Of a stretch of 33,318 nt of DNA, positions 1,786-31,844 are shown one piece after another. The notes beneath the pieces were generated by a model. That model saw only the letters and a program-made list of their open reading frames with translations, was not told the origin of the DNA and made no database searches. The DNA comes from Candidatus Bathyarchaeota archaeon. GTDB lineage: Archaea; Thermoproteota; Bathyarchaeia; Bathyarchaeales; Bathycorpusculaceae. Location: positions 1 through 33,318 of the forward strand of contig CAVTZU010000007.1 of the NCBI GenBank assembly GCA_963739305.1, written 5' to 3'. The position numbers and the translations under genes were made by a program. Position 1 is the first letter of the stretch, and each line of letters opens with the position of its first letter.

Positions 1786-2176
1786 CATTTATTATATGTC
1801 GATGTTTTCTCTCATGCCGTGGACGGTTTAAGGACGCGCGCAGACTAGAAACTGATTCAGGGATTGATTTTGCAGATAACGTACTAAAGAACCGGTGAAA
1901 ACTCGAAAGAATCTGTAGACGGAATGTAAACCGAGAGTTAGAAACAGTTCATGCTCATTCCGCTGAAAACCGTTGATTTTCCGACAAAAATGTCTACAGC
2001 CGTTTCCTGAATCTTCCAGGAACAGAATGGAACAAGCATTTCCTGAAATAGTCCATCCTTTTTCCAGAAAAGAAGCTCAATTCTTTGAGAACTGTTCCTG
2101 GTCAGTGAAGTGTCACAACTCTTCAAAAAGGACCATTGTGTATGTTGGAATTCTGGGAATTCCAGAAAAAAGTGAA

Positions 2177-2570
2177 TTGTTACTGATTGTTACAGCAAAA
2201 TTGTTACAAAGGCATGGACTTTCAGACTAGGTCTCGTAGCGCGCGCGTGTCGGTATGACAATCAACTCATGCGTTAACAATTATCGGTCATACCGCTAAC
2301 TCATGCGTTAACGCTGCGTTAACGAAAAGACCATACTGCGTTGCCTTTGCGTTTCCAAAGTCTTTTTCGTTCTCCTGCCTTTATCAAGGGTCTAATGGAG
2401 AACGGAGCCTGATTCTTCGAGCTTGCTTCATTGTAAATATTATGTCTGCGTTAACGCATTTTCCCATCTGCGTTGATTGTCTTTTGAGGTAACAGCAGAA
2501 AACAGGCACTTATACAAGTTTGTTACAGCTTTTGTTACAATCTCATGGTCTTTTCATGGTCATACCATGC
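2177..2570. repeat. Non-coding array of short direct and inverted repeats
   Basis: AACTCATGCGTTAAC at 2264 and 2298; TGCGTTAAC again at 2315 and 2447; inverted CGGTATGAC/GTCATACCG at 2252/2287; TTGTTAC three times near 2177-2207 and twice near 2521-2540; GAAAAGACCAT at 2324 and inverted at 2544. Confidence 0.7.
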
Positions 2571-2606
2571 CTTCGTATAATGCGCGCGTTAGTAACAAAG
2601 TATGTG

Positions 2607-3062
2607 TTAGCCGGGTTTTCCTCTGTGTATTTCTAGGTTAAACCCAAGTTCCTTCATGAAGTCAAGGTAAGCAAAACCTCTAGTTTTGTTTCCGTCTGAA
2701 ACTTCAATCAGCGGTCTCTTGCCATTTTTCGTGTAGATTCTCATAAATGCATCGTAGCCCTCAGTGGGAGCGAAAGCGACATGATGAATACCGGGACCGT
2801 TTTTGCGGAGCCAATCCATAAAAATGCTCTCCGAAATAGGCTGAATCAACTCAAGCTCAACTTCGAAAGAGCGACAGAAAGCAATTCTCAATTTAAGGGT
2901 GCTGGGTTTGCCGTCAACCAACATACTGGGAAACGTATCAGGGTTAAAATCGATCACCTCCCAGGGCCCCACGCCAAAGTCCTTTTCGTAACGCTGTACA
3001 AAGGCATCCACATCGTCGACAATAAGACCTACCTGCATGAATTTCTTGAATTTGTTATCCAT
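2607..3062 (-). CDS. VOC family (glyoxalase/methylmalonyl-CoA epimerase-like) protein
   Basis: QVGLIVDD, ELELIQP and GPGIHHVAF motifs; GGAGGTG RBS supports the ATG at 3062. Confidence 0.85.
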   Translation of the reverse strand: MDNKFKKFMQVGLIVDDVDAFVQRYEKDFGVGPWEVIDFNPDTFPSMLVDGKPSTLKLRIAFCRSFEVELELIQPISESIFMDWLRKNGPGIHHVAFAPTEGYDAFMRIYTKNGKRPLIEVSDGNKTRGFAYLDFMKELGFNLEIHRGKPG

Positions 3063-3337
3063 ATTATGCACCTCCTAGACATTGCACAAGTTCTGCATAA
3101 GAGCAATGCATTGTCTACGCGCAGTGAAATCCACAATTTGAACCTCCCTTCCTAGATTTTGTCCCGTTCCGGGGTATTTAACTCGTTGGACGACCAAGGG
3201 CTTCATCCCTTATGAACCCTAACTTCAGGTAATCCTGTGCCGAGAGCGGCGCGCGCCGAAGCCTTATTTGCACATAAAAAGGCCTTCTGGATGCGCGCGC
3301 TAATCAAAGAATAGTGTGTTGATTGAAAAAGCTCGTT

Positions 3338-3358
3338 CTTGAAAAGAAAAAGGGGGGT
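3338..3358 (-). terminator. U-rich archaeal terminator after the SBP/dockerin gene
   Basis: C-run then T-rich TTTTCTTTTCAAG on the minus strand just after the stop; near-identical to the tract after the paralog at about 27903-27921. Confidence 0.55.
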
Positions 3359-3359
3359 A

Positions 3360-6300
3360 CTAGTAGTGTTGGTTATAGTTTCCAGCAAGTATTATGGCGT
3401 CATAGATGTCTACAATGCCGTCGTTGTTGATGTCTGCGTTAGGGTTCCAGTTTGGACTTCCAGGAACCGAATTGTAAGCCCCTGCTAGTATTATCGCGTC
3501 ATAGATGTCTACCGATCCGTCACCGTTTACGTCGCCCAAAAGACCCGCTAGAGTGGACGTCACTCTCACTTTGTGAGAAAGCTCGGCGGATTCAAAGTAC
3601 AAAGAGTAGTGTGTGGCATTTTCTGTTACCGTCACGGACTGCGGTACGTCGTCCAGATAGACAGTCAAGTTGCCTGACATCAGCACCTTTGGGATTGTTA
3701 TGTTGCAGAAAGCATCGACGTCTGTCGTGAGATTGAACTTCAACTCCTTCTGAGCTATGTCAAAGCTGTAGTTCGAGTACACGATGTAGTTGCTGTAGAC
3801 TTCCACGGTAAATTTCGTTTGGCCATAATAGACACTGAGAGACCAAGGTTCTGCTGTTGGGTTAGTTGGGTTGTTGAATGTCCAACATAAATCTGCGTCC
3901 ACCATCCGAGTACGTCAAACTAGTCGATAACCCCGTCAGGCATCAGGTCTTCTTGGATCCAGCCAGGCGGTCCAGTGCGTCCAAAATGCATTATTCCCGC
4001 GAAACGTATCGCATCAATATGATCGACAATTCCGTCTTGATTTAGGTCTTCCGGGATATATGCCAAGTCTCCCTTACCGTATCCAACGAGTTGAACCATG
4101 CCGTCGGAGATTGTCTGATCGCTCAGGTCAGTGTCGACTGCATTGCTATTAATGGGATATGCCTCAGCACTGATGCTCCAGTTGCCGTGAGTAATCGGGT
4201 ATGACTTGTCCCATGTCAGTTCCACGGATATGCTCTGTCCCGGGGCCAGCACGAGGTACGTGCCGTTGGGATAGCAGTAATAATGGTTTGACTGATTGGT
4301 CAACCTCACAGCCACAGCTACATACAGCAACGGGATAGCGTTGTTGTTATCCTCTCTCATCAGTGTAACGTTGAAAACCAGGTTCGGACGAAAACGCAAA
4401 GAGATTATCGGATCCAGCGGCTTCGTGGGTACGATGCTGACTACTTTTATGTCAACGTTCTGGAGTGTAGACACGGACTTGTATATGTCGTAGGCGTACT
4501 CTCCTGGCAACAGCGCGTTGTAGTACCATCCTTGTACCCAGTCTCTTGCGAACCTTCTGCCCACGGGTTGAACCAGCGGTAGGGTTATCACGTCGTCGTA
4601 GAACCTTTGCTGCAGGTCTCTGTAGTCTATTCCACGTTGAGCGAAGTTTGGCTCGATGACTGCCGCGTTGATTTCTGCGTCAATTATCGCTTGGTCAGCT
4701 GGGAACGGAGGTCCTTGTGATATTGGGAAATTCCCTGTGGACTGCATGTACGGCTGAACGAAGTCATGTGGGTCAGCGAAGTCTGCCAACCAGCCCGAAC
4801 AGAAGACGGGCATCCGGAAGGTGTTCATAGCGTTCAGGAACACTGACCAGTCTAAGCCTACAACGTTGACTTTGTACTTCGAGTTCAGGGTCTGGAAGGC
4901 GGTTGCGATCAACTGTTCGGCAATCATTCTCTGGTCGTTGCCAATATTGTACACCAAGGTCGTTTCAAACCCATTGAGTCCAACGTTGATGCCGTCAACA
5001 ACCGCCAGGTTCAACTCGTTCTGCATTTGAGTGTAGTCAAGGTTGCGTAGAACCAGTGCTGTGTTCTTGAAGGATGGCGGGCTTAATCCGTCTACCCACC
5101 ATGAGGCTTGCTGTATTCCTTCACCGAAGTACGCTTGCTGAGATGTACTGTGTGTAGTTGATTGCCCACGCGAAAGCCTTCTCATGTGCTCGTTGGCGAA
5201 GAACAAGTGGTTCAGCTGCCGTCTGGTGGGGGTAGCCTACGTAGGATTGGTAGGGACTTGCTGCCGAGACGTTCATGCAGAAGAACATCATGTCGTTGCT
5301 TAATTGAGCAATGTTGTAGACCAGGTTGATTCCTGGAGCAGGTGTATACGCGTCGGTCGTTAGGAGGTCAAACATGTTGGCTCTTGGAACGTAGCAATCG
5401 TCGAATTCACCTTCAAGGAACAACACCTTCCTCGTCGGCCACGAATCAACACCTTTCGAGATAACGGTCGTCACGTGGCTTCCACTCCATCCGCCCCAGT
5501 ATCCGGTCCACTGGTCGATTCTCCAGACCTTGTTCGCCTGGTCCCATGACGTGAACAGGTACGGGCCTGTCCCCATGATTTCGTTCACGTGCTTGTTGCT
5601 GCTCGGATACTTTGATCCGGCAACTGCGCCGTAGATTGCAGGGTCTTTCCACGCGTCAATTTCACTGCGTGTGACCGTTGGTTTCCAGTGCCACAAGTTC
5701 GTCCAGTCCGCACCCATGTTGCTGTCCGATACGCCAATTGGGAATTGCCCGTTCCATCCACCGTGCTCCTGAACCCATTCCGGCTCAATTATGCTACCCC
5801 AGGTTTGCGCGAAAATCTGGTTGAGCACGCCTGGAGCCCATGGTTGCTGGAAGTGGAAACTCACGTCGTTAGCACCAGGCCCTGCATAGCACCATGCCTG
5901 AATCATTTGGGCGGCAGTTAATGAGTCTGCTGTGTGTTTGAATGTGCCGTTGCTGTAAGCGGCGAAGGCATTCCATAAGCCCGCCGACGCGTCTCCTGTG
6001 AAAGCAGGGCCGAACCACATCCATGTGGGTGCGTAGTATGAGTCGTAGACCATTTGTCTCTGGAACGAGTAGATAACGTCGGACGCTTTGAGGTTGCGTG
6101 ACGGAATGACGCTGCCGTTTGCTGCAGTCCACGGTTGGAACGTGGCTGTCGTGCGGATGGTGAATGTGTAGTATTCACCTGTGTCAAGATGGCCTGCCGT
6201 GTAGTTCATGGTAATCGTCGGCAGCGCCGTGGCCAATACTGGCGTGTAGCTGTCGAGGTTAGCGTACTCCGAAAGCGTCAGGTTGTGTCCAACGCCAGGG

Positions 6301-6577
6301 GAGAAACTGATTACGTGCTTGTCATTCCACCATATGAGCGTTTGCGCGACGTTCTGTATCAACTCGCCGCTCGCTGTGTCGTAGGCACGAGCCGGGTCCA
6401 TCCTTGCGGGTTGACCTATCGTACCAACGTAGTAAGTGCTTGTGACGATTGGCGGTTGCGTTGACAATACTGGAATTACCGCAAATATGCTTGGTCAGTA
6501 ACACGCTGTTGCGATTATGCTATCAGTTTTAGATTGAGCGATTTCTGCCTATTTCTATCGAGTGTTCTTTTCGACAA
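3360..6577 (-). pseudogene. Oligopeptide/nickel-type (family 5) ABC solute-binding protein with C-terminal beta-rich and dockerin type I domains; frameshifted (pseudogene or sequencing errors)
   Basis: ORFs 5121-6467, 3920-5206 and 3360-3905 are collinear with the intact paralog at 27924-30614 (DPARAYDTAS, GTGPY, GWLADFADP, DVNGDGSVDIYDAI). Indels near 6490-6520, 5140-5210 and about 3885, plus an in-frame TAG at 3920. TTG start after GGGGATGA. Confidence 0.85.
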
Positions 6578-6610
6578 TTAATCATCCCCGATCCAATTAT
6601 GTTTTTCAAG

Positions 6611-6679
6611 TAGATAAAACCTGTGAAACATTGTTCTATGACAGACAACACGAGCATCATGGCTGAATCAAATGAATCA
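6611..6679 (-). promoter_or_regulatory. Promoter/operator region of the SBP gene, conserved with 30649-30715
   Basis: Sense-strand ATAGAAC-N4-TTTCACA-GG-TTTTAT; TGAATCAAATGAATCA (+ strand 6664-6679) is identical upstream of both SBP paralogs. Confidence 0.6.
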
Positions 6680-6862
6680 ATCAACCTATTTCACGATTCG
6701 GGAACTGAATTGCCAGCGCGCACAATAGAGTTGGAAGGGAGCGTTCAATACGCGCGCGCTTACGAAGACGAATCTTCACACGAAGGTCACAACATGTCCG
6801 CTTCAGAACATTGAAAACAGTTTTCTCGCGAATGTTGAGGGAAAATGAAAAATTATCTGGTT

Positions 6863-6891
6863 ATAGAACTGTTTTTCACAAAGCTTTTATT
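6863..6891 (+). promoter_or_regulatory. Promoter with ATAGAAC-N4-TTTCACA motif plus TATA-like TTTTAT
   Basis: Same architecture as the two SBP promoters, about 55 nt upstream of ATG 6946. Confidence 0.5.
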
Positions 6892-6945
6892 CGTATCTTG
6901 TTGCATTAGAACTGCGCAAGCTGCGGGGATGGAGGTGAGGAAGGA

Positions 6946-7435
6946 ATGAGAAGACTGGGTAATGTAGGCATCCGAGTTCTTTCAGTTCTGTTGGCGGCCA
7001 CTATCGTCCTGTTTTCAACATTTCCTATGACCATTGCAAAAAGGGAAATGAACAGCGTGCCTTTCAAGGCCAGTGGCAAGTGTAACGCAGTCGTCGTGAG
7101 TCCTCCGCCGATTCTGGAAATATACATCTATGGAAGCGGGCATGCGACGCACATGGGTCTCGTGAGTATCTGGCAGCACCATTTCGTCGATGTTAAATCG
7201 ATGACCTTCTATGACGGAATATTCGTCTGGACTGCTGCAAACGGTGACAAGCTGATAGGCAGCTACTACGGCTCGATGGTTCCCACATCTGTCGGGTTTG
7301 AAATACACGGGTTCTTCACGATTGACGGTGGGACGGGAAGATTTCGATAGTGCAGACGGCGGAGGCATCGCTTCGGGCATGCAGTACTTTGACAACACTG
7401 CGGATCTTTACCTCGATGGGACGATAACGTACTAG
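6946..7435 (+). CDS. Exported beta-rich hypothetical protein with a +1 frameshift near 7345
   Basis: N-terminal signal-like hydrophobic stretch and GGAGGTGA RBS. After GGTGRF the alternate frame continues DSADGGGIASGMQYFDNTADLYLDGTITY*, followed by a T-rich terminator. Confidence 0.65.
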
Positions 7436-7519
7436 TGAATAAGAAATCGGACATCCTCAAATTTCCCATTTTTCTTTGCTTTTGATGACAAGCGCGGGCG
7501 CTGACGGAACTCCTACTCG

Positions 7520-7918
7520 CTAGACGTAGTACGACAATATAGTATTGTTGACTACAACTACTGTGTACACAAGAATGAGCGCACAAAGACATGTCGTCAA
7601 ATAGATGCGTAGTGCCCTCCAGTGAAGGCGATATGAAAATACCGACAAACATCCAAAGGCGACCACTACACTTAATTTGAGAACCACACCACCCGCAAAA
7701 CCTAACATTGCAAACAACGCAATAGCCATTACATTTGCTTCCTCCGCTCCATGAGCAATCGCTGTCTGCGTGGTAAGGATGTCCAAGACGTTTAATGCAA
7801 CAAGCACCAGAGCCAAAACCGCGACCAATGTTTGTCTTTTCAAGGTGCGCACTTCTCTATGATGACTGAAAACTCCCATCCTTTTTAGGCTTATTTCTGG
7901 ATAAGCATATAGAGGCAA
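7520..7918 (-). CDS. DUF5658-like small membrane protein (true start probably downstream of the ORF start)
   Basis: LNVLDILTT...GAEEAN motif followed by hydrophobic helices and a terminal VVVNN. Confidence 0.65.
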   Translation of the reverse strand: MPLYAYPEISLKRMGVFSHHREVRTLKRQTLVAVLALVLVALNVLDILTTQTAIAHGAEEANVMAIALFAMLGFAGGVVLKLSVVVAFGCLSVFSYRLHWRALRIYLTTCLCALILVYTVVVVNNTILSYYV

Positions 7919-8447
7919 GCTGGTGGTATCTTAGCGCGCGTTTTAGGTCTTTAGGGCGCGCGCTACGCTGATGGTTCTTTATAAACTATTTCATGCATTG
8001 CCGTCCGTGTAACTCTGAGATTTCATCCTCTCGTCAAGCTAATGCCTTCTCATCATCCGGCAAAATAAGGATGATCAGGCGGAAAATAAAAACGTTCTCG
8101 CAGCCAGTAACTATTTCTGTAGAATCCTTAAGAGACACAGTCAACTTCGACTGATCCGAATTGGGTGAATTTTCGACATGGGTTTCAGCTATTGATTGTG
8201 GTTTCAAAAGCTTCTTTTCGGCCGCAAATATTGCTTTCCTAGCATGAGTAGAGTCGAAAAATGGCCCTTCAAAGTTCCTATTGAAGGTGCAGAAAAGCGT
8301 TTGATACATGTCCCGAAAAAGCGTTCTGGATGAAAAATGGATCGTGGCTGCGATTATGCGAAAGTGTATTTCGAATGTATATTCTCCATTCATAAGACAG
8401 TTAAGTAGTACTCGCCAATTCTGTGCCAAGTAGCAGGAGAAAAGTCC

Positions 8448-8630
8448 ATGAACAAAACATTAACACTTAAAGAGAGAAGAGAACTGCAAACCAAAATGGC
8501 CAAGGTTTTCAACCCAGACATCAAAGGACTTTCAACAGAATTGCAAAGAATACTGCTAGATGACCTGGTCACCGCCTTCCAAAATAGAATAAACGTGTTA
8601 ATTCGAGCACAGACAAAAAGAAGCTACTAA
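8448..8630 (+). CDS. Small helical hypothetical protein
   Basis: AGGAG RBS; coding-like composition; co-oriented with the downstream wHTH gene. Confidence 0.65.
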   Translation: MNKTLTLKERRELQTKMAKVFNPDIKGLSTELQRILLDDLVTAFQNRINVLIRAQTKRSY

Positions 8631-9625: not shown

Positions 9626-9631
9626 CAAGTC

Positions 9632-12509: not shown

Positions 12510-13230
12510 TTGAATATTGATACTGAAATTATATTGTCAATCCTCAAACTGACTAAGAGCAGATCTGTTACACAAGAAGCACTCAAAAACGACCTTCGCT
12601 TCCCCCTTGATGTTGTATTGCACTTGCTTAAGACACTGCAAAATGAAGGTCTGATTTATGTCTGCGACGATGTGATACACGCAACAGAGATGCAACGATT
12701 CGAACTGGCGATTCGTGCGTTGAAAGATGTTGATATCGAAAAAGTCACGGACTGTGCTTCAATGGAGAGAATTTGAGGCGATGACCGCTCTTGCATTTGA
12801 GCACAATAGCTATTCAGTCGTGAAGAATCTTCGTTTTAAACACAACGGACGAAGATACGAAATAGACGTTGTCGGTTGGAAAAACTCTTCGGTTGTCTGC
12901 GTAGACTGCAAACATTGGCACCATGCAATTGGCAGATCCACGTTGGAGCGCATAGTGGAAGAGCAAGTGGAAAGAGTTCGCGCGCTGTCCTGCTCCCTTC
13001 CCAATCCGAGGATCAAGATTGAATGCTCATCACCGGACTCATTAAGGTTCATGCCCGTTGTTTTGTCTCTAATCAAGGACAAGTCCAAATTCTGCGGCGG
13101 AGTGCCAATCGTGTCTATACTCCAACTGCAAGATTTCTTGAATCAGCTGCCCGCTTATGAGGAGTCCATCATGCAGATTTCTACCGCCAGACCTGATAAG
13201 CCATATTCCAGCCAGAGCAAACTCGATTGA
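12510..13230 (+). CDS. wHTH plus PD-(D/E)XK restriction-endonuclease-like (Mrr/NERD-type) protein, with a frameshift near 12750
   Basis: ORF 12510-12776 (wHTH-like) overlaps ORF 12727-13230 (WREFE...EIDVVG...VDCKHW). Most simply one gene with an indel. Confidence 0.7.
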
Positions 13231-19235: not shown

Positions 19236-19383
19236 CCCCAAATTATTGAGGGATTATTCTAAGTTATTTCAGGTTAAGAATAGCCTAACGCTGCGAGGAG
19301 CCTATCGACAAGACCGCCCGCGTGCGCTTCGCCAAACTCCAAACGACCCGCGCCAAACCGCTTGCCAAAATCGACCGATTAGC

Positions 19384-19803: not shown

Positions 19804-20589
19804 AATCAGTGGTTTCAGAGTGAAAAATGAAGCCTCTAGCCCCCCTCAAACTGTGACGGAATACTCAAAAGAACCATGATTTAAGCCCCTTTCCCAATCC
19901 AAAAACTCATACCATAGTACCCCGTGGCCTCATATAAAAACCGACGAAAATCTCCATGCGAAGCGAAGACCGCTACACTTCGAGTTTGCTTCGAGGTTTT
20001 AAAGGTTTTTCGGAAATGCCAAGGAAAATCTGACCGTTTTGGATAGATGAAGCCTTTTTTTCAAGTTGTGGGTCAGTGCTTTCGTTTTGGCTAAAGGGCT
20101 TTTGTCCAGTCGTGTTATGACAGACTGCCTGCGGAACGATAGGTTGCTTTGTGTACGGCTTGGCTTCTGCGTGTGTTTTCTGGTTGGGGGTCAGGTTTCT
20201 AAGTTGTCGCGTGGGACTGGACTTTTGGGGATGCTATTGTACAAAGGCCTTCCGGGTTGAGTTGTCATTCTCGTTTTTTATGGTTTTAATGGACAGTGTG
20301 TGGAGGTTGAAAGGGCTGAATTCGGGGTTCTCGTCTTTGATGTTGGTGGTTTGTCCTGGTTCGTGTAGGCTGAAAGTGTGAAACTTGATGCTTGTGCAGA
20401 TCTCGGCTTTTCATGCTGGTGATGCTGGTGGTTTTGGTATTACTTTGGTTTTCGTCGTATCACTGACGTCCTCCAGTGCAACCAGTGGGGTGGTTGTATA
20501 CGGAAGCATCGCCGAAGTGAACTGTTGTGGAGGATTCTTAGTTCTGTTTTCAAAAACTTTTAATGTGCTCGTTCGGTTAGGTTTGGTGT

Positions 20590-21586: not shown

Positions 21587-21657
21587 CTGGTCAACATGGT
21601 TTTTGAGTGTTTTCAGCTCTAAAACACCCTACCCCCCGGCCTTTTTTTCTTGCACGG
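21587..21657 (-). repeat. 71-bp repeat, copy 2 (inverted)
   Basis: Reverse complement of 12236-12306. Confidence 0.95.
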
Positions 21658-22214
21658 GGATTTGCGCGCGGTTTGGTGTGGGGTTTGGTGTGGGCTCGAG
21701 GATGGTCGGAACGATTTTTTGGATGTTGAACTTGTCAACTTTTTTAGGTGATTGTTTGATTCCGGTTGAGTTTGCCCGCGCTTCGAGGGTTGTTGGCGGC
21801 GAATGTGTTTGACGGCACGGTTGTGTCTGGGTTTTTATGTCATTTTTCGTGTCTTGGCCTATTGGGTTTTGCGTTGTACTTTGAAATGATTTGCGGCTTC
21901 ATGATCTTTCGCCTGACCTAAAAACCCCGTTTAGAGGATTACCTTCGTGGTTTGTGTTGCTTTCCAGAAGAGAAGGCGTGTTCTGCGTTTGAGAATGATG
22001 TTGAAATGGGTTATAGGTATTCCGCGTCGAGCGAACTCCTGCGTGATCGAGGGGGTTGTAAGCACGTATTAATAAGGTTCGGGATGTTTCGAAACATGAA
22101 TCGACAGCTTTTGGATTTGGATTAGGGAACAAGTTGATCTAGTAATGGGCTGATGAATTGCGCAAGAGTTATAATTTGATTTCGCACTTTGAAGCTCAGA
22201 TGTGATCGGCTGAT

Positions 22215-23054: not shown

Positions 23055-23465
23055 CAATCCTTGTTTTCATCAATCGGGCCAACAGATTGTTCGAGTCTTG
23101 AACCTCACAATTAGCTCCCAAATGACACAAAATTGCATCCATTCGTTAATCTTTCGTCTAGCGCTCTCACGTCAAATTGCAATTTCCATGTCAATCGTGC
23201 ACGTTCCTAACTACTTCGATCCGTCAGTGCATGGTTTTCCGAAGAAACGTCGCTGGGTTGCGTACGCAGACCATGTTACCGTTCTTTCAGCACCGTGGGC
23301 AAACAGAAAAAGAACTTTGCCTTGGCTGGACGATACGTCGTAGAAATGAGAAAGCGAAAGGGTTCTTCAGAGTTAATAAGGTTCGAAGTTGTACGAGACC
23401 GCCACATCTTTTGCACATGCTCGAGGAGTTTAAGCGTGGTGTTCTTGGCACACGAGAGGGATCTT

Positions 23466-24443
23466 TCACAGTTCTGTCAGGTTAAGCTTGAGTTTTCGTG
23501 ACAGGTTATTGAGGTCGTGCAACACGTAGATGAAGACATACCCTCTCCAGATTCCCCATCTTTGTTCAGCGAGCTTCTTGAGCTCTGGGATGGCTTTTCG
23601 TGGAGATTGAGACGCTTTTCCCAGAAGCAAAAGACTGAAGATTTTGGCGCTCCAGACGTCGAGTGGAAGGCCGGCTTGTGGGAGCACTATGTCTGCTGAG
23701 TATTCGCCTATTCCTTCCAACTCCATAAGTTTGGCCTTTGCTTCTTGCGGGGACATTTTCTCCAGTTGCCGAGGTTCTGGGAAGCCCTCGCGAACTGTTT
23801 CAGCTATACTCTTGAGCGAGCGTGCCCTGTATCCGACCTTGCATTTTCGGCGCAATTCTTCCACAGAGGCTTTAGCAATACGTGTTGGCGAAGGCCAGTA
23901 TTTGATTTCTTTACCGTCAAACTTTGTGTTTTCTCCGTACTCTTCTATTAATAGGCTCATCATCTGATCGCTTCTTGATATCGGAGCCATCTGCAAAGTC
24001 ACAGCTAAGATGAGTCGAGGAAAGAGATCAGGCTGTTTTGTGTTTCTCATACCATACAGGTCGTCTACGAGCATTTTTACAAGTGAGTCCTTCTGGGCGA
24101 GAACGTAGAATCGGTTAATGTCTTCCTTCAGGTTCAACATCCAAGAGAGTGTTTCGATTATTTCTTCTTTTTCGGGTGTTCTGAGTTTACAATGAGAATA
24201 GACTTTGCAGGAGATCTTCGGGTTGTTGACGACACCTTCTGATCTGAGCTTAAGTCCAAGCATTTCTCCTGAATTGGTTCGCATGGCTGTCCAAAGAATC
24301 CCTTTTTCAAAAATTTCAAGAGGCGTAAGCAACGGCCATCCACCAGGTTTGCGAATTGTTAGGTCGAAGTCATAGGGAGGGATGGCGTGAAGTCTCAGCG
24401 TCGTGGACTCGGCGAGATTGCCTGACGAGTCATTGCGAACCAT
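23466..24443 (-). CDS. HhH-GPD DNA glycosylase (AlkA/Ogg-like)
   Basis: KVGYRA, LMELEGIGEYSA HhH motif, PLDVW, WGIWRGY. Confidence 0.85.
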   Translation of the reverse strand: MVRNDSSGNLAESTTLRLHAIPPYDFDLTIRKPGGWPLLTPLEIFEKGILWTAMRTNSGEMLGLKLRSEGVVNNPKISCKVYSHCKLRTPEKEEIIETLSWMLNLKEDINRFYVLAQKDSLVKMLVDDLYGMRNTKQPDLFPRLILAVTLQMAPISRSDQMMSLLIEEYGENTKFDGKEIKYWPSPTRIAKASVEELRRKCKVGYRARSLKSIAETVREGFPEPRQLEKMSPQEAKAKLMELEGIGEYSADIVLPQAGLPLDVWSAKIFSLLLLGKASQSPRKAIPELKKLAEQRWGIWRGYVFIYVLHDLNNLSRKLKLNLTEL

Positions 24444-24792
24444 GCTGTTACCCTTGTCGAGCTGCTAGACTTACGGTGACACGTGCACAATAACCTTTGG
24501 TAAGCTCTACACTATTTTTTGGAGCTTGACAAAAGCCTTGGCTAACACGGGTGTCACCCGGGATTGACCGCACTAATCATCTATCTTTGTTACTCCTATG
24601 ATTTGTGATGATCGATGGAGAGCATCGTCAAGGAACTCAACAAAATCGGAACAACTGGCGCTCTAGAAATTTCGATGTTTGACAATAAAGCGTAAGCATT
24701 GCCTGTTGTCCTCCATTGACGTCGGAAACGGCCAAGACCATTATTTTTATTAGGTGAGGAATGACGAGATTAATTCGTGGAAAGTGACTGTT

Positions 24793-25662
24793 ATGGATAG
24801 AGCTGTGGCGAAGGTTTTCAAGAGCAGACCGACTTTGGAGGGCGCTGGAGTCCGGCTCAAAAGGGTTTTCAATGGCGGTGAGGTTCGGCTGTTTGACCCA
24901 TTTCTGCTTCTGGATCATTTCGGTTCTGACAATCCTGAGGACTACGTCAAGGGGTTTCCCTGGCACCCCCACCGCGGGATTGAAACGGTTACATACATGC
25001 TTGCTGGAGAGGTTGAGCACGGCGACAGCATTGGCAACAAGGGCCTCATTGCTTCTGGTGACGTCCAGTGGATGACTGCAGGATCAGGGATAATTCATCA
25101 GGAGATGCCTAGAAGGTATGATGGTTTGATGCAAGGTTTTCAGCTGTGGGTGAATCTACCGAGCAGTAATAAAATGATGGCACCGAGGTATCGTGGAATC
25201 ACTAAAGACGATATCCCGTCGTTCGAAAAAGGCGGAGTCAAACTCAACGTCATAGCGGGAAGTGTTAATGGAATTGAAGGACCAGTTCAGGATCTAGTGG
25301 TAGATGTTGAATACTTCGATGTCCACTTGAAGGCTGGAAACAGGTTTGAGCATCCGACCGATGCCGACTTGACTGCTTTCTCTTATGTCATTGATGGCAC
25401 AGTAATCTGCGGTGACACCCTGATAAGACCAGAAAATTGTGCGCTTTTTGGAAAAGGCGATCGCGTGACAATAATAACAAAGGAGGGTGCGCATTTCCTC
25501 TTCGTGACGGGCAAACCGTTGAATGAGCCCATCGCTTGGGGAGGACCGATCGTGATGAACACCGAGGGCGAATTGGCCAGCGCCTTTGAGGAGTTGGAGC
25601 AGGGTACATTCATCAAAGACGGTAGAGTAGTGAAGTCAGCAAGACACTTTTATCGACGCTGA
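24793..25662 (+). CDS. Pirin family protein
   Basis: DPFLLLDHF, GFPWHPHRGIETVTY, WMTAGSGIIHQEMP, QLWVNLP. Confidence 0.95.
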   Translation: MDRAVAKVFKSRPTLEGAGVRLKRVFNGGEVRLFDPFLLLDHFGSDNPEDYVKGFPWHPHRGIETVTYMLAGEVEHGDSIGNKGLIASGDVQWMTAGSGIIHQEMPRRYDGLMQGFQLWVNLPSSNKMMAPRYRGITKDDIPSFEKGGVKLNVIAGSVNGIEGPVQDLVVDVEYFDVHLKAGNRFEHPTDADLTAFSYVIDGTVICGDTLIRPENCALFGKGDRVTIITKEGAHFLFVTGKPLNEPIAWGGPIVMNTEGELASAFEELEQGTFIKDGRVVKSARHFYRR

Positions 25663-25950
25663 ATGCGCTCAAACATGAACGATTCACCAGATCTTTGCCC
25701 TAGAACAATTCTTAATCAATCTTTCACCCTTCGTGACTAGGCGAAGAACATCTCTTTGACTCATATAATACTCTGATTCAGAAGGATCAGCAGCAAACCT
25801 CAGAGGCGCTGCAAATCGGAATAAGATGAACCAAAAAACCATGTCCAGAGGCGCGCGCACCAAGTGTTTGTATTAGTTGAGAAAGGTAAGCAGCGACAGG
25901 GCAAGGCACAAAAACAGACACAAACACAACGACTGGGAGAGCAGATAGAC

Positions 25951-26676
25951 ATGAACATAAACAAAAACCTCATCATGATTATACTTCTTTTGATTCTTTG
26001 CATTGTCCCCTTAGCAGGCAGAGTAAAAGCCGACGTGATCGCTGGAGTCCAACCTGGAGACTGGATCAAATATGACGCAAAAGGTCCCTCTGATACGCCC
26101 GGACAGTTCGAAAGTTATTGGATGAACGCCACCGTGATCTACGTAAGCGACACACTAGTCACGATCACCTTAGATTCAAACTCAACGAACATTGGCAACT
26201 CATATTACCAAGTCGACGTTGCGACAGACTGCTGGATCGGCGGAGCATTTCCACTCATCGTTCCCGCAAACCTGTCCTCTGGCGACGATGTCCCTGGAGG
26301 CAACCCAACCGCGACGATAAACGACACGACGCAACATTTCGGTAGAGACGCGGCACACATCGGCATCACTTCAAGCAGTGAAGTCTCCGACGTCTATTGG
26401 GACCGACAGAAGGGCGTACTCCTTGAACTCAGCGGCAGAGACCCAAACGACGCGTCATCTCAGACGACCATCAAAATGGTCGACACCAACATGTGGACAA
26501 GCTTACCCGCACTGTTCGGGTCAGACCCATTGCTCTGGGCAGCCGCTGGGATCGTCGTAGTGGCAGTCCTCGTCGTCTCTGCAATAGCATTGACACGATA
26601 TAGAAAGAGGCTTTCAATTACCACGGCCGGTCTCCCGCCTCAGTATCCTCCACCGCCGCCACCTCCTCCTCCATAA
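25951..26676 (+). CDS. Exported, C-terminally membrane-anchored hypothetical protein with poly-proline tail
   Basis: Signal peptide, GVQPGDWIKY and YWDRQKGVLLE motifs, TM helix, then PPQYPPPPPPPP. Confidence 0.75.
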   Translation: MNINKNLIMIILLLILCIVPLAGRVKADVIAGVQPGDWIKYDAKGPSDTPGQFESYWMNATVIYVSDTLVTITLDSNSTNIGNSYYQVDVATDCWIGGAFPLIVPANLSSGDDVPGGNPTATINDTTQHFGRDAAHIGITSSSEVSDVYWDRQKGVLLELSGRDPNDASSQTTIKMVDTNMWTSLPALFGSDPLLWAAAGIVVVAVLVVSAIALTRYRKRLSITTAGLPPQYPPPPPPPPP

Positions 26677-26985
26677 CGTTCTGCTTGCGCTTCAACTTCA
26701 ATTCCATATTGGCGTGCGCCTCTTGGTTCGCATGCTCATGTTTTCCCTGCCGTGCCTAAGCCGCGCGCGCTGCGGATATATCTCCACTTCCAGCGCAACC
26801 TCTTTTTTGTGTTCTCTTTTTGATGCTTTTGTATACAAGGTTGATGGATAGTCGCACGCTCGAATTTTTGCCGTATTGTTCTTTGCAAATATGGTTGAGA
26901 AATGTAAACGCATAGAAAAGAAGAAGAAGGTGTGAAGCCATAAGGGAATCAAAGTCTGGGCAAGAAGATTCGAGTTGAAAAAGAG

Positions 26986-27531
26986 ATGAAATTGATGAAA
27001 AAGCCCCTTAAAGATGTCGAATTGAGGCTGATTTCTGAACTTATGAAGAATAGTCGGCGAAGTGATAGAGAACTCGCCAGGGTTTTAGGAATATCGCAGC
27101 CGACAGTGACGAGAACAAGGACGAGGCTCGAGAAGGAAGGCTACATCAGAGAGTACACGATGATTCCTGATTTCCGTGCTCTCGGCTACACGATCATGGG
27201 AGCCACGTTGTTAGAAGTGCGTGAGGCATTCACCGAAGACAAGCTCAAAGAAATCAGGAAGATTACAACCAAAATCGAGGAGAGTAATCCTCGTGCCGCT
27301 TTGTTAGCTGTGAACGCTTTGGGCGGCGATAAGAACAGACTTTTCATAACCTTCTATGAGAACTACTCAGATCACGTCGACGCAATGAGACTTACAAGGC
27401 AGATTCCTCAGGTTGATGTCGAAAGCATCCAGAGTCTTCTCGTGGACTTGAACGATGAAACAAACTACAGAGTGCTAAGCATGTCTGCCATTGCGAATCA
27501 TCTGCAAAAACGGTTGGAAAAAAAGAAGTAG
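26986..27531 (+). CDS. Lrp/AsnC-type winged-helix transcriptional regulator
   Basis: ELMKNSRRSDRELARVLGISQPTVTR...LEKEGYIREYT.IPDF..LGY. Confidence 0.88.
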   Translation: MKLMKKPLKDVELRLISELMKNSRRSDRELARVLGISQPTVTRTRTRLEKEGYIREYTMIPDFRALGYTIMGATLLEVREAFTEDKLKEIRKITTKIEESNPRAALLAVNALGGDKNRLFITFYENYSDHVDAMRLTRQIPQVDVESIQSLLVDLNDETNYRVLSMSAIANHLQKRLEKKK

Positions 27532-27544
27532 ATCGGCGCGCGGT

Positions 27545-27717
27545 AACAACACGCAACGATACATCAACATTGAACGAACAATTTTTTGAGGCCAAAAGCG
27601 ACGATTTCACAGTAAGAGTAGCGGAGAAAACGGAGGAAGTCAAAGCATTACTCGAAGGAGGCCTTCGAATGGATAGCGCAGAAGGAAGGCTTAATATTCC
27701 TGAGGAAACGCAAATGA
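27545..27717 (+). pseudogene. C-terminal remnant of a tyrosine recombinase/integrase (two indels)
   Basis: Reads NNTQRYINIERTIF / EAKSDDFTVRVAEKTEEVKALLEGG / FEWIAQKEGLIFLRKRK*. The NT..Y resembles the catalytic Tyr motif. Homologous to 31845-31934. Confidence 0.7.
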
Positions 27718-27761
27718 CTGAGAAAGCTACCATCGACAGATACCCAAGTCACCAAAATAGC

Positions 27762-27776
27762 GGCCGGGGTGAGGTA
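27762..27776 (+). mobile_element. att-like duplication of the tRNA-His 5' end
   Basis: GGCCGGGGTGAGGTA is identical to 31967-31981, with a similar preceding context (GTCACCAAAAT vs GTCAACAAAAAT) after an integrase tail. Confidence 0.75.
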
Positions 27777-27923
27777 TTCTCGGCCTTTTGGGGACATCTC
27801 CCGGACAAATCCCCGTTTTTTTCAATATAGACACCAGACTCAGCTCGCCTTGTTCGGTATTCATATCTGTTTTTCATAGGGCGATCGCTAGCTGGCTTTT
27901 TGCTTGAAAAGAAAAAAGAGGGA

Positions 27924-30614
27924 TTATGGTACGTGTTGGTTGAAATGGGCTGCCAGTATGATGGCGTCGTAGATGTCTATGTTTCCGTCTCCGTTGCAGT
28001 CAGCGTCGGCATTATATCTCTTGTCGCCTTGCTTTGACCCGAAGGCGTTTGCCAGCTGGATGGCGTCGTAGATGTCTACTAGGCCGTTTCCAGTAACATC
28101 GCCTGGGAGCGTCTTGGCAATAAGGATGCCTGCCGGTTGCACGTTGTTGGCTGGGTTGGTGTCATTTACATTGCTGTTGATTGGCCATGTTTCGCCTACT
28201 ATTGCGTACGGGATACCTGTGCTGTTGCCAGCCATCACAATGTCTGTGCCATCAGCCCAGAAAATCATTGAAGCACTTGCACTTCCACCGGGCATAAGGG
28301 TTACGATGGTGCTATTGGCGGCCTGCTTGCCGTCCGTCGCTGACGTGTATGTCAAAGAGACTGTCGCATACAGACTGCCGATGGCGCCGTTGAAGTCGTT
28401 TCTTGTTACGTTAAGTATGTAGTTCCGTAAATCGGGGTTTGCGTTGCCGTTGCCTATTCTCATTTGGTTGTGGAATATGTATGTGACATTTGGAGTAGGC
28501 GTTGCTGGGGTAACAGTCATCAAGGCCACGTCCACGTTCTGGAGTGCAGTTACGGATTTATACAAGTCGTAGAAGTAGTCGCCTGGAAGTAGTGCGTTGT
28601 AGTACCAGCCTTGAACCCAGTCCCTTGTCCATCTTCGGTCTATTGGTTGAACCAGCACGAAGCTTATGACGTCTTCGTAGTACTTTGCCTGCAGGTCTTT
28701 GTAAAGTAGTCCAAGCTGAGTGAAGTTCTGCTCGATCATTGCTGCCTCGATTTCATTGTCTATTACTGTTTGATCTGCTGGGAAGGGAGGCCCCTGTGAT
28801 ATTGGAAAACTCACGTGTGAATACATGTATGTCATTGCGAAGTCTAGCGCGTCGGCAAAGTCTGCCAGTTTGCCTTGGGTGTAACCGGGCATCGACATTG
28901 AGTTCATGGCGTCCAAGAACACTGGCCAGTCTAAGCCTTTCACGTTAACCTTGTATTTCGGGTTAAGCAATTGGAAATTTCTGGCGATCAGGTCTAATGC
29001 GCTTTTTCTTTCTTCGTTGCCGTTGTTGTACAGAAGGGTTGTTTCGAACCCTGCGGAGCTGACGTTGATGCCGTCTATGACGGCTTGGCTGAGTTCGTAC
29101 GTCATATTCTTGTAGTTATCGTAGTTATTATCGCGCACAGTGAGTGTTGTGTTCTGGAATGATGATGGTGGCAGACCGTAGATCCACCATGAAGTTAGAT
29201 TGATTGCTTCCCAGGAATAAGTCGTAGGAACGTACCCGTTCGTGCCCGTGTAGTTGACTGCCCACGCGAAAGCCCGTCTTATGTGCTCGTTTGCGAAGAA
29301 CAACAGCACCGCTCCGGTCTGATGATTCGGATAACCAACATAAGACTGGTAGGAACTTGCACTTGACACGTTCATCGTGAATAACACTGCCTCGTTCCTC
29401 AATGCGGCGATGTTGTAGACGAGGTTGATTCCTGCGTCAGGATTTTCTGAGCTGGAACCGGTGGCTAACTCGGCTATTCGGGCAGGTGGAACTTGTATCT
29501 CGTCGAATTCACCTTCCAGGAACAGCATCTTCGTGGTTTGCCAGTCGTCAACGGTCTTTTCGATAACGGTGTTCACGTGGTTGCCACTCCATCCGCCCCA
29601 ATAAGCGGCGAACTTGTCGATTCTCCAGACCTTGTTCGCCTGGTCCAATGAAGTGAACAGGTATGGCCCGGTGCCAATGAGTTCGTTGACGTGTTTGTTA
29701 CTGCCCGGATACTTTGAACCTGCCGGACCGTAAATTGCGGGGTCTTTCCACTGGTCGATTTCGCTCCGCGTGGCTGTTGGCTTCATGTGCCACAGGTTAG
29801 TCCAGCCTGCCGCGAACTGCCCGTTCCATCCACCGTGCTCCATAACCCATTCAGGTTCGACTATGCTTCCGTACGTTGACGCGAAAATCTGGTTCAGAAT
29901 GTCTGGATTCCATGGAACCTGGAAGTGGAAGCTGACTTGGTTTGGGCCAGATATGTAGCACCACGACTGTATTATGCTGCCCGCGCTGAGTTCGTCGGCC
30001 GCGTTTACAAATGTGCCATTGGCGTATGTGCTGAAGGGTCCTCCGACTAATTCGGTGCTGAAGCCTACAAATCCGAACGCGGGTTCAAACCACATCCATG
30101 TGGGCCCGTAAGGCGAATCGTAGACCATTTGTCTCCGGAACGAGTAGACAACGTCGGCTGCTGTAAGGTTGCGTGGAGGAATTATCGTGCCGTTGCCCGC
30201 TGTCCATGGTTGGAACAGTGCATTGGTGTTGATCGTGAACGTGTAGTATTCACCTGACGCGTTTTGGACTATTGTCGGCAGCGCCGTGGCCAATATTGGA
30301 CCGTAGCTATAGAGGTCAGCGTACATTGCAATTGTCAGGTTGGTTCCAACCCCTGGCGTGAAGGGGACGACTGGCTTGTTATTCCACCATATCAGCGTCT
30401 GTACGATGTTTTGTATCAATTCACGGCTTGCTGTGTCGTAGGCACGAGCCGGGTCAAGCCTAGATGGTTGATCCGTCCTCTGAAGGTAGTAGGTTGAAGT
30501 GTCTACTGGCGGCTGTCTGGACATTGCCGAGACCATGAAGCAGCTTACCATCAAAGAACTGATGAGAAATGCAGCGATCAGTTTTTCCTTATTACCATTC
30601 AATGTCTTTGGCAA
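27924..30614 (-). CDS. Family 5 ABC solute-binding protein with C-terminal beta-rich domain and dockerin type I domain
   Basis: LDPARAYDTAS, IGTGPY, LADFAD; GDVTGNGLVDIYDAI...DCNGDGNIDIYDAI dockerin repeats; GGGGATGA RBS before TTG at 30614. Confidence 0.88.
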   Translation of the reverse strand: MPKTLNGNKEKLIAAFLISSLMVSCFMVSAMSRQPPVDTSTYYLQRTDQPSRLDPARAYDTASRELIQNIVQTLIWWNNKPVVPFTPGVGTNLTIAMYADLYSYGPILATALPTIVQNASGEYYTFTINTNALFQPWTAGNGTIIPPRNLTAADVVYSFRRQMVYDSPYGPTWMWFEPAFGFVGFSTELVGGPFSTYANGTFVNAADELSAGSIIQSWCYISGPNQVSFHFQVPWNPDILNQIFASTYGSIVEPEWVMEHGGWNGQFAAGWTNLWHMKPTATRSEIDQWKDPAIYGPAGSKYPGSNKHVNELIGTGPYLFTSLDQANKVWRIDKFAAYWGGWSGNHVNTVIEKTVDDWQTTKMLFLEGEFDEIQVPPARIAELATGSSSENPDAGINLVYNIAALRNEAVLFTMNVSSASSYQSYVGYPNHQTGAVLLFFANEHIRRAFAWAVNYTGTNGYVPTTYSWEAINLTSWWIYGLPPSSFQNTTLTVRDNNYDNYKNMTYELSQAVIDGINVSSAGFETTLLYNNGNEERKSALDLIARNFQLLNPKYKVNVKGLDWPVFLDAMNSMSMPGYTQGKLADFADALDFAMTYMYSHVSFPISQGPPFPADQTVIDNEIEAAMIEQNFTQLGLLYKDLQAKYYEDVISFVLVQPIDRRWTRDWVQGWYYNALLPGDYFYDLYKSVTALQNVDVALMTVTPATPTPNVTYIFHNQMRIGNGNANPDLRNYILNVTRNDFNGAIGSLYATVSLTYTSATDGKQAANSTIVTLMPGGSASASMIFWADGTDIVMAGNSTGIPYAIVGETWPINSNVNDTNPANNVQPAGILIAKTLPGDVTGNGLVDIYDAIQLANAFGSKQGDKRYNADADCNGDGNIDIYDAIILAAHFNQHVP

Positions 30615-30648
30615 TTTTTCATCCCCATGGGAGATTAGTCTTAGTAGT

Positions 30649-30715
30649 AAATAAGATCTGTGAAACAAAGTTCTATCATAGAATATGAGGTATCATGATT
30701 GAATCAAATGAATCA
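30649..30715 (-). promoter_or_regulatory. Promoter/operator region of the SBP gene
   Basis: Sense ATAGAAC-N4-TTTCACA-GA-TCTTAT; TGAATCAAATGAATCA at 30700-30715; matches 6611-6679. Confidence 0.6.
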
Positions 30716-30980
30716 GAAGAACACGTTGTACATCAAGTTTGGCAAGCGAATCCGATATTACAAGTTCAACGATACCTCTTCTAAAGCAATCGCAGTAAGC
30801 GACTTGATTGAGCCTTTTGAGACATAGAAAAAGAAGGGAAGAACATTATTGTGTTTGAATCTTTTCCAAGTTTGTGATGCACGGTTTATGTTTAGAACAC
30901 GAGACAAATGCTATATCGAACGAGGAGCAAAGTTTTTAATTTGATACATCACTGTACTGCTAAAGTCCTTTCTAGAAGAC

Positions 30981-31523
30981 GTGAAAAACTTGAAAGACAC
31001 CGAGCGTAAACTCGTTTCTGAATTGATGAAGAACTGTCGTAGAAGTGACAGGGCACTAGCCAAGGCTCTAGGTGTTTCTCAGCCTACTGTTACAAGAACC
31101 TTGCGCAAGTTGGAGAAGGAAGGGTACATCAAAGAGTATACAATGATACCTGATTTCGCTAAATTAGGGTATGAATTGATGAGCGTCTCTTTCATAACTG
31201 TGAAGAACAACGCTAGACCTGACGAGAAAGGGGCCGTTATCACTACCGCAGCCGAGGAAGTGAACAAGAAGGTTTTTCCAGACTTGCTTATTGAGCGAGG
31301 CATAGGCCTTGGTTTCAATGGGATTATAATCACGCTTCACAGAAACTATTCAAATTACACGGAACAAGTGAACTACACGAAATCACGACCATTTGTCCAG
31401 ACAAACCGTGTTGAGAGTTTCTTGATAGATCTTAAAGACAGTGTTCATTTCAGAAGCCTGACACTTTCGGTTGTGGCCGACGACCTGATCAAAAAGAACA
31501 AGGAAGAGACGAAGCGAAGCTAA
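30981..31523 (+). CDS. Lrp/AsnC-type winged-helix transcriptional regulator (paralog of 26986-27531)
   Basis: ELMKNCRRSDRALAKALGVSQPTVTR...LEKEGYIKEYTMIPDF; divergent from the SBP gene. Confidence 0.88.
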   Translation: MKNLKDTERKLVSELMKNCRRSDRALAKALGVSQPTVTRTLRKLEKEGYIKEYTMIPDFAKLGYELMSVSFITVKNNARPDEKGAVITTAAEEVNKKVFPDLLIERGIGLGFNGIIITLHRNYSNYTEQVNYTKSRPFVQTNRVESFLIDLKDSVHFRSLTLSVVADDLIKKNKEETKRS

Positions 31524-31582
31524 TTAGCGCGCGCTAGTCTACTTCGAAACATGCCAACAAGTTAGAATGAGGGTTTTTACCT

Positions 31583-31747
31583 CTAGTGGGTTTTAGCGGG
31601 CGCGCTGGCGTCGTATGTTATCTCCATTACAGATTCTTTGTCAGGGTTACGAACGAATATAACGGAACAAGCGTTGTTTTCGCAGCAGTACTTAGCCTTG
31701 CCTGGGTCCTTCTTCAATGGTTTACCACATTCGGGACAATTAGCCAT
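31583..31747 (-). CDS. Small C4 zinc-ribbon protein, copy B (54 aa)
   Basis: Manual translation MANCPECGKPLKKDPGKAKYCCENNACSVIFVRNPDKESVMEITYDASAPAKTH*. Confidence 0.7.
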   Translation of the reverse strand: MANCPECGKPLKKDPGKAKYCCENNACSVIFVRNPDKESVMEITYDASAPAKTH

Positions 31748-31844
31748 GTTCAAATTCCCTCTTGGATAACTAGAGAGGATTATGTAAAAATGTTGTTAAT
31801 CCCTAATAGTGATGCGAGCTCCGTTTCTCTCTCGCGCGCGCGAC

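Follow-up and report, generated by a model that had tools for sequence, protein, structure and literature searches.

A palindromic GC tract at the ends of inserted, replaced or deleted segments in the variable genome of some Bathyarchaeia

The window analyzed here is the entire 33,318-bp contig C7 of a Candidatus Bathyarchaeota genome (G000; 2.32 Mb in 36 contigs, 97% complete, contamination 7.8%), and it is punctuated by short tracts of alternating C and G. A tract was taken as a maximal alternating C/G run, counted in most analyses at lengths of at least 7 nt and in the breakpoint test at lengths of at least 6 nt. The first-pass annotation of this window had listed 15 tracts, all intergenic, as marks of module junctions and of points where homology ends. 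We found a run of 7-10 nt at every one of these positions, none of them inside the genes called by our finder. A 16th, the lone tract that had been placed in a coding sequence, was present at 12979-12985 within an open reading frame (ORF) that has only a partial NERD/Mrr match. The genes were called by a home-made hexamer-based finder (~81% coding), and because this finder is crude, miscalls probably account for part of the "coding" tracts and of the "non-orthologous genes". The central claim was found to hold genome-wide and in a second species: the palindrome tA-GCGCGCGC-Ta forms a short core that is found where inserted, replaced or deleted segments end. This placement points to an undescribed cut-and-join process that shapes the variable part of the genome.

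The features of the window are listed below, where the tracts and the non-coding segment carry no strand. X1-X4 denote four peat DNA runs from one study, which were compared as assembled contigs; G001 is a sister species available as a single contig, and C31 is another contig of G000.

1835-1841: tract CGCGCGC; sister-species synteny ends here, and the match of one X2 contig to the window begins only at 1835
1842-2238: non-coding inter-tract segment; dispersed repeat at ~2036-2247 with high read depth
2239-2247: tract GCGCGCGCG; population branch point, with X3 and X4 loose ends past 2247 that enter other sequence
2582-2588: tract GCGCGCG, 19 nt past the VOC gene stop; contig alignments start or stop at 2582/2588
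2589-3248, minus strand: tract-bounded single-gene segment, glyoxalase/VOC gene at 2607-3071
3249-3256: tract GCGCGCGC, spanned by X1, X2 and X3 contigs
3293-3300: tract GCGCGCGC, spanned by X1, X2 and X3 contigs
3301-6750, minus strand: tract-bounded; carries a dockerin protein gene plus two SBP_bac_5 pieces, and has paralogous segments elsewhere in the genome
6751-6759: tract CGCGCGCGC in a divergent spacer
7934-7940: tract GCGCGCG, spanned by peat-run contigs
7956-7963: tract GCGCGCGC, spanned by peat-run contigs
12979-12985: tract CGCGCGC, inside the ORF with the partial NERD/Mrr match
18942-18949: tract GCGCGCGC, 378 nt upstream of LonB
21664-21670: tract GCGCGCG, preceded at 7-10 nt by the ends of four repeat copies
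25851-25858: tract GCGCGCGC, 1 nt shorter in the 98.4% identical C31 copy
25859-26761, plus strand: tract-bounded single-ORF segment, ORF at 25864-26676 without a family match
26762-26770: tract CGCGCGCGC, with a C/T difference in the C31 copy
26771-27535, plus strand: tract-bounded single-gene segment, Lrp/AsnC-type regulator at 26986-27531
27536-27542: tract GCGCGCG, 5 nt past the Lrp stop
31527-31534: tract GCGCGCGC, 4 nt past the second Lrp-type gene's stop and bordering zinc-ribbon copy B on the left
31535-31832, minus strand: multi-copy segment whose gene (31583-31753) encodes a zinc-ribbon protein of 56 aa; tracts flank it both here and in G001
31833-31842: tract CGCGCGCGCG, bordering zinc-ribbon copy B on the right and followed by a weak integrase remnant and then tRNA-His

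Within the window, several tracts were confirmed to lie where homology stops. The comparison of synteny showed that homology with two related genomes, G008 and G001 (89% over 1-1831), ends exactly at the tract at 1835, and both of these genomes continue together past the equivalent point without a tract. The earlier description of the zinc-ribbon copies was borne out: tracts lie directly against both ends of copy B (31540-31828), and none flanks copy A (19384-19683). A reported 71-bp repeat was recovered as a 76-nt repeat that ends at 21657, 6 nt ahead of the tract at 21664. Two integrase remnants had also been placed directly after tracts; one weak remnant was located (31824-31931, beside the tract at 31833) and the second was not found. 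It was noted that the small zinc-ribbon gene itself (CPxCG...CC), which lies at 31583-31753 on the minus strand (56 aa) and at 19210-19647 on the plus strand, has several copies per genome throughout the genus and is without a family match. Positions 23105-33318 of the window are 98.4% identical to the reverse strand of C31, and at three of the five tracts in this region the C31 copy shows a point difference or an indel of 1 nt. Contig ends elsewhere also overlap one another in many cases, at 95-99% identity, and together the C31 match and these overlaps suggest strain heterogeneity or recent duplication in the metagenome-assembled genome (MAG).

We then turned to the peat runs, in which 40-59% of the sampled words of window 1500-8500 were found. 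Support for the tracts from spanning sequence had been sought, and independent peat contigs (as opposed to raw reads) span the tracts at 2239, 3249, 3293, 7934 and 7956. Peat-run contigs branch at 1835, 2247 and 2582/2588, and one contig of 1,309 nt matches from 1835 onward only. Since the peat contigs both span and branch at tracts, the joints are real and polymorphic in the population. The alternative raised by the first-pass annotation, an assembly artefact, is very unlikely because the tracts occur in a single-contig genome, in 10 of 10 same-genus genomes, and in the independent contigs that span five tracts of the window.

Across the whole of G000, 396 tracts of at least 7 nt fell within the 436 kb of intergenic DNA and 105 within the 1,881 kb that is coding, so that their density is ~16-fold higher between genes. 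The most over-represented intergenic 8-mer was GCGCGCGC, with 287 occurrences observed versus 2.8 expected from base composition. The observed/expected ratios of CpG and GpC were 1.0-1.1, from which we infer that the expectation under a dinucleotide null would rise less than 2-fold. Tract lengths did not follow a geometric series (6 nt, 398; 7 nt, 150; 8 nt, 202; 9 nt, 96; 10 nt, 48; 11 nt, 2) and showed a peak at 8 nt. Among the intergenic tracts of exactly 8 nt, 146 read GCGCGCGC versus 19 that read CGCGCGCG. In both G000 and G001 the consensus is the palindrome tA-GCGCGCGC-Ta, or tA(GC)4Ta, of 10-12 bp, with A at -1 in 63-72% and T at -2 in 42-44% of tracts and the mirror image on the opposite side; no flank conservation was found past 2 nt in either genome. 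The first-pass annotation had overlooked that the motif is this defined palindrome, not a generic (CG)n run. Single-letter variants of the motif were also enriched, transitions by 6-13-fold and transversions by 2-5-fold. No description of the motif was found by full-text literature searches covering archaea, Bathyarchaeia, and the footprints of insertion sequences (ISs) in archaea.

Several simpler accounts of the tracts were set aside. General microsatellite expansion or slippage does not agree with the absence of enrichment of AT, AC and AG repeats, or with the length peak at 8 nt and the cut-off after 10. Hypermutability was rejected, as mismatches within alignments of at least 90% identity amounted to 4.6% inside tracts versus 3.3% outside, with 7 of 34 tracts changed. 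Closely spaced tract pairs that could form hairpins exist yet are a minority. A wider repeat element around the tracts was likewise rejected given the flanks unconserved beyond 2 nt, with only a small subset sharing TTGTTACA-type words. These words, ~4-5-fold enriched within 80 nt of tracts, occur in 2-3 copies in short tract-adjoining segments (window 2180-2235; G000 C10:98279, C11:15148, C23:118906 and C35:39123). A tRNA-Gly(GCC)-like gene at C20:145676-145749 of G000 has, as read by eye, the acceptor stem GCGCGCG/CGCGCGC, which accounts for one of the closely spaced pairs; its two tracts are not junctions.

The association of the tracts with the variable genome was assessed against G001, of which 1.2 Mb was taken, its genes predicted, and 706 reciprocal best hit pairs with G000 obtained (median orthologue identity 73%). 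Spacers in conserved gene order rarely contained a tract of at least 7 nt (8 of 343; 0.31 per kb). Tracts were carried by 22.7% of the spacers in broken gene order (30/132), by 24.8% of those with one non-orthologous neighbor (93/375), and by 26.5% of those with two (79/298), at densities of 1.0-1.8 per kb across these three non-conserved classes; the counts of 8, 30, 93 and 79 were back-calculated from the fractions. The 3-4-fold depletion in conserved spacers held for spacers of at least 100 nt in both species (0.30-0.41 per kb), and just 3 of the 343 conserved spacers had a tract in both. The tracts were clustered (variance/mean of 3.65 per 20 kb) and became scarcer where conserved genes made up a larger share (Spearman -0.50). 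Most of 92 small gene-level indels between conserved neighbors were without a tract, however, which speaks against the simplest form of this association.

Breakpoints were taken from alignments of G000 against itself and against G001 (at least 90% identity and 300 bp), giving 70 alignment ends that lie inside contigs on both sides. A tract of at least 6 nt was found within 10 nt of the end in at least one copy at 31 of these 70 ends, compared to an intergenic null of 7.7% (binomial; ~1e-16), and counting by distinct loci gave 30 of 69. The junctions that were inspected show homology breaking off at the edge of the tract, give or take 0-4 additional letters, while the other copy continues tract-free, as at C11:77276-77594, C17:14859-15240 (versus C30) and C26:14590-15247. 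The tract was present in one copy only at 23 of the 31 tract-associated junctions and in both copies at the other 8. Allele pairs were also encountered: C3 reads ...GTA-GCGCGCGC-TGGG..., where C2 has the same flanks around a tract, 4.2 kb and a second tract, and between the same two tracts C13 carries 1,985 nt and C17 carries 2,881 nt of different genes. Between G000 and G001, one clean 9-nt tract-only indel was found (C26:47462), the sole example among 109 tracts internal to alignments. The first-pass annotation had proposed that the tracts are either repair scars or crossover cores; since both scar-like cases (tract in one copy) and core-like cases (tract in both copies, as well as the allele pairs) were seen, these data do not decide between the two mechanisms. 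The tract-bounded segments carried STAND/TPR NTPases, NosD-like proteins, cohesin/dockerin proteins, SBP_bac_5, peptidases, GCS2 and ABC ATPases, and no recombinase was found in the segments examined. Segments of 92-98% identity are common to species whose orthologues are ~73% identical. Tract-bounded repeats were rejected as a common class, given that three ends at tracts occurred in only 1 of 582 self-alignments.

With respect to genes, tracts were found in all spacer classes (convergent, 1.4 per kb; tandem, 0.82; divergent, 0.76). They shun the last ~40 nt ahead of start codons and frequently lie 0-20 nt past stops, with a broad spread of distances. A promoter or terminator element was therefore rejected: the tracts have no fixed distance or orientation to genes, and conserved spacers are depleted in them. 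The tracts are best explained as joints where DNA of the flexible genome broke and was rejoined, and not as sites of gene control.

The taxonomic distribution of the motif was examined next. GCGCGCGC was counted 29-464 times in the 10 of 10 other genomes of the genus and at most 14 times in eight other genera of the family, and its density varied ~8-fold within the genus. Among 401 sampled genomes of the class Bathyarchaeia, 21 from five families were motif-rich, defined as having AGCGCGCGCT at least 24 times and its reversed control at most 5 times. In one genome of another family (G121; 400 kb), 37 tracts of at least 7 nt were intergenic versus 7 coding (22-fold by density), the length peak was again 8 nt, and the flanks were A in 80% and T in 87%. 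In family f24 (e.g., G141, G088 and G102), the reversed word TCGCGCGCGA was raised, with up to 26 copies, where AGCGCGCGCT was not, and this excess could represent the same phenomenon in a different phase. [quoted passage not shown]

This family encodes DDE_Tnp_1 transposases, which were present in G000, G382 and G121 and were not detected in two motif-poor relatives; the protein, encoded in G000 at C18:148687-149673, is IS1182/IS5-like. The copies in G000 and G001 are located as follows.

G000 C18:148613-149681 and G001 389080-390160: IS5/IS1182-like IS with a 21-nt terminal inverted repeat beginning GCGCGC

The G001 copy reads cacgTA-GCGCGCATGCGTGTTCC...GGAACACACATGCGCGC-TAttt, with the 21-nt terminal inverted repeat and a TA outside both ends, and the left end of the G000 copy is the same. 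G121 has two 99.9% identical copies of 1,139 bp with the ends GCGCGC.../...CGCGCG. All six IS ends examined (four from G121 and one each from G000 and G001) are thus GCGCGC or CGCGCG, matching the tract sequence. In the 1.2 Mb of G001, 42 terminal repeats with a GCGCGC tip were found, and among 12 pairs of plus and minus ends, ten span 164-231 bp (MITEs) and two span 872 and 1,080 nt; G382 has 6 such ends. The outer flanks of IS/MITE ends showed A at -1 in 67% and T at -2 in 55%, versus 57-61% and 39-43% for tracts.

Because the IS5/IS1182-like ISs and MITEs end in GCGCGC, mostly next to a TA, the transposase is the best candidate agent, and our best guess is the DDE transposase family of these genomes. 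We tentatively favor a transposase-linked cut-and-join origin followed by later reuse of the 8-bp identity, a reading to which we give somewhat short of an even chance. The tract would consist of two 4-nt element tips joined between TA flanks, left either upon excision of an element or by aberrant transposition in which the ends fuse unrelated DNA. Any two existing tracts would then share 8 bp of self-complementary identity, and the allele pairs suggest that the segment between them may be deleted, inverted or exchanged. Through such reuse, the tracts would be both scars and reusable crossover cores. The same data fit an alternative in which the element prefers to insert into tracts. No allele pair with the element in one copy and the tract in the other turned up, though such pairs were not systematically sought.

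A number of observations weigh against the transposase-linked origin. G000 has ~350 tracts of at least 8 nt versus one IS copy and almost no MITE ends. Transposase homologues were found in 8 of 21 motif-rich compared to 74 of 380 other genomes, leaving 13 of the 21 in which none was found, four of which (G115, G107, G318 and G235) were also without the terminal repeat; these absences are not firm because repeats are often missing from MAGs. The distance from tracts to the IS/MITE ends now present was no shorter than that from randomly chosen positions of variable spacers (Mann-Whitney; p = 0.77). A TA on both sides was seen in only 2 of 12 paired ends, such that TA target duplication was not demonstrated, and longer remnants of the form GCGCGC-WW-GCGCGC numbered 0-1 per genome. 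Cut-and-paste IS5-type elements are not known to leave scars of this kind. Tract-flanked copies with tract-free counterparts need an extra step, namely capture or aberrant transposition. As other candidate agents, IS630-type DDE_3 and TnpB were rejected since they were found in G121 only, reverse transcriptase was detected in none of the 5 genomes tested, and Cas1 was present in motif-rich and motif-poor genomes alike, with only fragments in G000.

A dedicated site-specific cassette system, in which a putative recombinase would cross over within the 8-bp palindrome, is an unlikely but substantial rival. Circular segments with one tract would integrate at chromosomal tracts and later be excised or exchanged, in an integron-like manner with a minimal core in place of attC. 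The alleles with a single tract versus tract-segment-tract, the different segments between the same two tracts, the 8 of 31 junctions with a tract in both copies, and the highly identical segments in species with far more divergent orthologues are all consistent with such a system, as are arrays of single genes tightly bracketed by tracts, for example on C17 and, next to an integrase-like gene, on C26. However, deletion between two direct 8-bp tracts would also yield a single-tract allele, and with a tract in one copy only at 23 of the 31 junctions, the segments come from tract-free contexts. Conservation is limited to tA...Ta, whereas known tyrosine and serine recombinases need sites of ~25-30 bp. 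A divergent tyrosine recombinase adjoins the C26 array, and most arrays are without an integrase. Integrases were not generally near tracts (2.8 versus 2.25 tracts within 5 kb), and the C26 integrase family occurs in 159 of 401 genomes and only 7 of the 21 motif-rich ones; both integrase proximity and this family were rejected as explanations. It is similarly doubtful that several Bathyarchaeia lineages possess a minimal-site cassette exchange with the tA(GC)4Ta core as a universal joint, in which inserts of 15 nt to several kb would duplicate the core and be swappable or removable, and the driving enzyme would be of a class new to such sites. In function, this exchange would resemble an integron or repeat duplication of the CRISPR type. 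Quite unlikely is a transposase-independent end-joining filler, whereby broken ends would gain alternating G/C until self-complementary tails pair over 8-10 bp and are ligated; the tract would be a repair scar, which may also capture stray fragments. This would account for the 23 of 31 junctions at which the single-copy tract abuts arbitrary sequence with 0-4 extra letters, for the clean tract-only indel at C26:47462, and for the narrow length range with its sharp stop after 10 nt. A full LigD primase-polymerase, Ku and ligase-phosphoesterase operon is also present in G000, and Ku in 8 of 11 genomes of the genus. Against this, Ku was found in only 4 of 21 motif-rich genomes versus 109 of 380 others (113 of 401 sampled Bathyarchaeia in all), and Ku-rich genera such as g23 have few tracts, so Ku-dependent filler is not the general cause and Ku dependence was rejected. 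The fixed phase of the tracts and their A/T flanks would be odd for filler, and just one clean tract-only indel was seen among the 109 internal tracts. The operon itself, of a bacterial type in an archaeon, lies between housekeeping genes at C32:50048-53119 (L103:6048-9119) and encodes a LigD primase-polymerase (296 aa), Ku (268 aa), and an ATP ligase fused to a 3'-phosphoesterase (464 aa).

We consider decidedly improbable a structural or protein-bound boundary element, meaning a Z-DNA-prone fragile site or a site for a dimeric protein that is selected between transcription units, with the rearrangements as a by-product. The palindromic 10-12 bp consensus, the occurrence of tracts between transcription units of every orientation, the avoided ~40 nt ahead of start codons and the frequent positions 0-20 nt after stops would suit this account, and alternating GC runs are described as otherwise suppressed in prokaryotes (PMC4060949). 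However, tract positions are hardly conserved (3 of 343 spacers share one) and conserved spacers are depleted; the density is ~8-fold variable within one genus, and the end of homology at the exact tract edge and the gain of tracts by segment copies are left unexplained. Barely credible, finally, is a methylation-linked drive by mismatch repair as modelled for the cyanobacterial HIP1 (GCGATCGC), which would suit a hyper-abundant, lineage-specific, GC-rich palindrome of 8 bp with transitions exceeding transversions among its single-letter variants. A search limited to the C5 cytosine methyltransferase (PF00145), and thus not covering N4/N6 enzymes, gave no match in either G000 or the single-contig G001 and matches in 3 of 31 relatives, and a C5 methyltransferase drive was rejected; the motif moreover hardly occurs outside variable intergenic DNA and goes with breakpoints.

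The tracts resemble parts of several known systems. HIP1 is described as an 8-bp, GC-rich palindrome that is 15-300-fold over-represented, lineage-specific, and of long unknown function (PMC4390886, PMC5861425), and it is also common inside genes and conserved (PMC5861425). The tract motif is likewise an abundant, lineage-specific 8-bp palindrome rich in GC. Unlike HIP1, which lies in genes, is conserved between species and has cognate methyltransferases, the tracts are intergenic, not positionally conserved and located at breakpoints, with no C5 methyltransferase found. Archaeal integrons with gene cassettes and attC sites have been reported (10.1101/2022.02.06.479319). As with integron cassettes, single accessory genes are bounded by a repeated signal, arrayed, and exchanged between genomes, with no recombinase within them. 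The attC sites are long imperfect inverted repeats (~57-141 bp) that IntI recognizes as folded single strands, whereas the tract is a perfect palindrome of 8-10 bp that by inspection is unable to fold as a stable hairpin; gene orientation is also mixed and no IntI-type enzyme is linked to the tracts. Relative to the ends and scars of DDE transposons (IS5/IS1182, and the TA-flanked Tc1/mariner type), two GCGCGC tips joined next to TA give TA-GCGCGCGC-TA, and breaks made by a transposase give rise to new joints precisely where the element ends. However, tracts in G000 far outnumber elements and TA duplication was not demonstrated, and excision scars of this sort are known for eukaryotic cut-and-paste elements but not for prokaryotic IS5-type ones. 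Similar to REP/REPIN and other bacterial intergenic palindromic repeats (PMC3116915), the tracts are short, intergenic and palindromic, number in the hundreds, often lie just past genes, and have a link to a transposase-like enzyme. REPs differ in being imperfect hairpins of ~20-40 bp that spread as conserved units, compared to the 8-12 bp conserved in tracts and the unrelated DNA between tract copies. CRISPR arrays also duplicate a short repeat upon insertion of foreign DNA, giving repeat, unrelated DNA and repeat, but their repeats measure 24-40 nt versus 8 nt; the inserts between tracts range over 15-4000 nt without a length ruler, the copies are dispersed genome-wide, and Cas1 does not track the motif, being fragmentary in G000.

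These results demonstrate an alternating GC run that is ~100-fold over-represented between genes and that coincides with the places where the flexible genome breaks. Should this be confirmed, the run could serve as a sequence tag that reports the sites and frequency of DNA insertion, exchange and loss in an archaeal class that is ecologically important and uncultured. It would also offer a way to the responsible enzyme and perhaps a recombination or insertion site that is very small and useful in practice. Annotators are cautioned that the tracts are not regulatory motifs.

Further features were noted beside the tracts. A 72-nt element at window 7989-8060 on the minus strand is 89-91% conserved genus-wide and has high read depth. 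Its similarity to the C/D-box sRNA family sR30 is weak (E = 0.024, under the gathering score), and it is probably a C/D-box guide RNA. A 75-nt stretch at window 19926-20000 is 83-85% conserved in three other genomes of the genus. Finally, we noted a large paralogous family of SBP_bac_5 proteins with a C-terminal dockerin, together with cohesin-dockerin proteins (window 3360-6467 and 27924-30668; G000 C2, C15, C16, C20 and C31), which hint at a cellulosome-like surface assembly.

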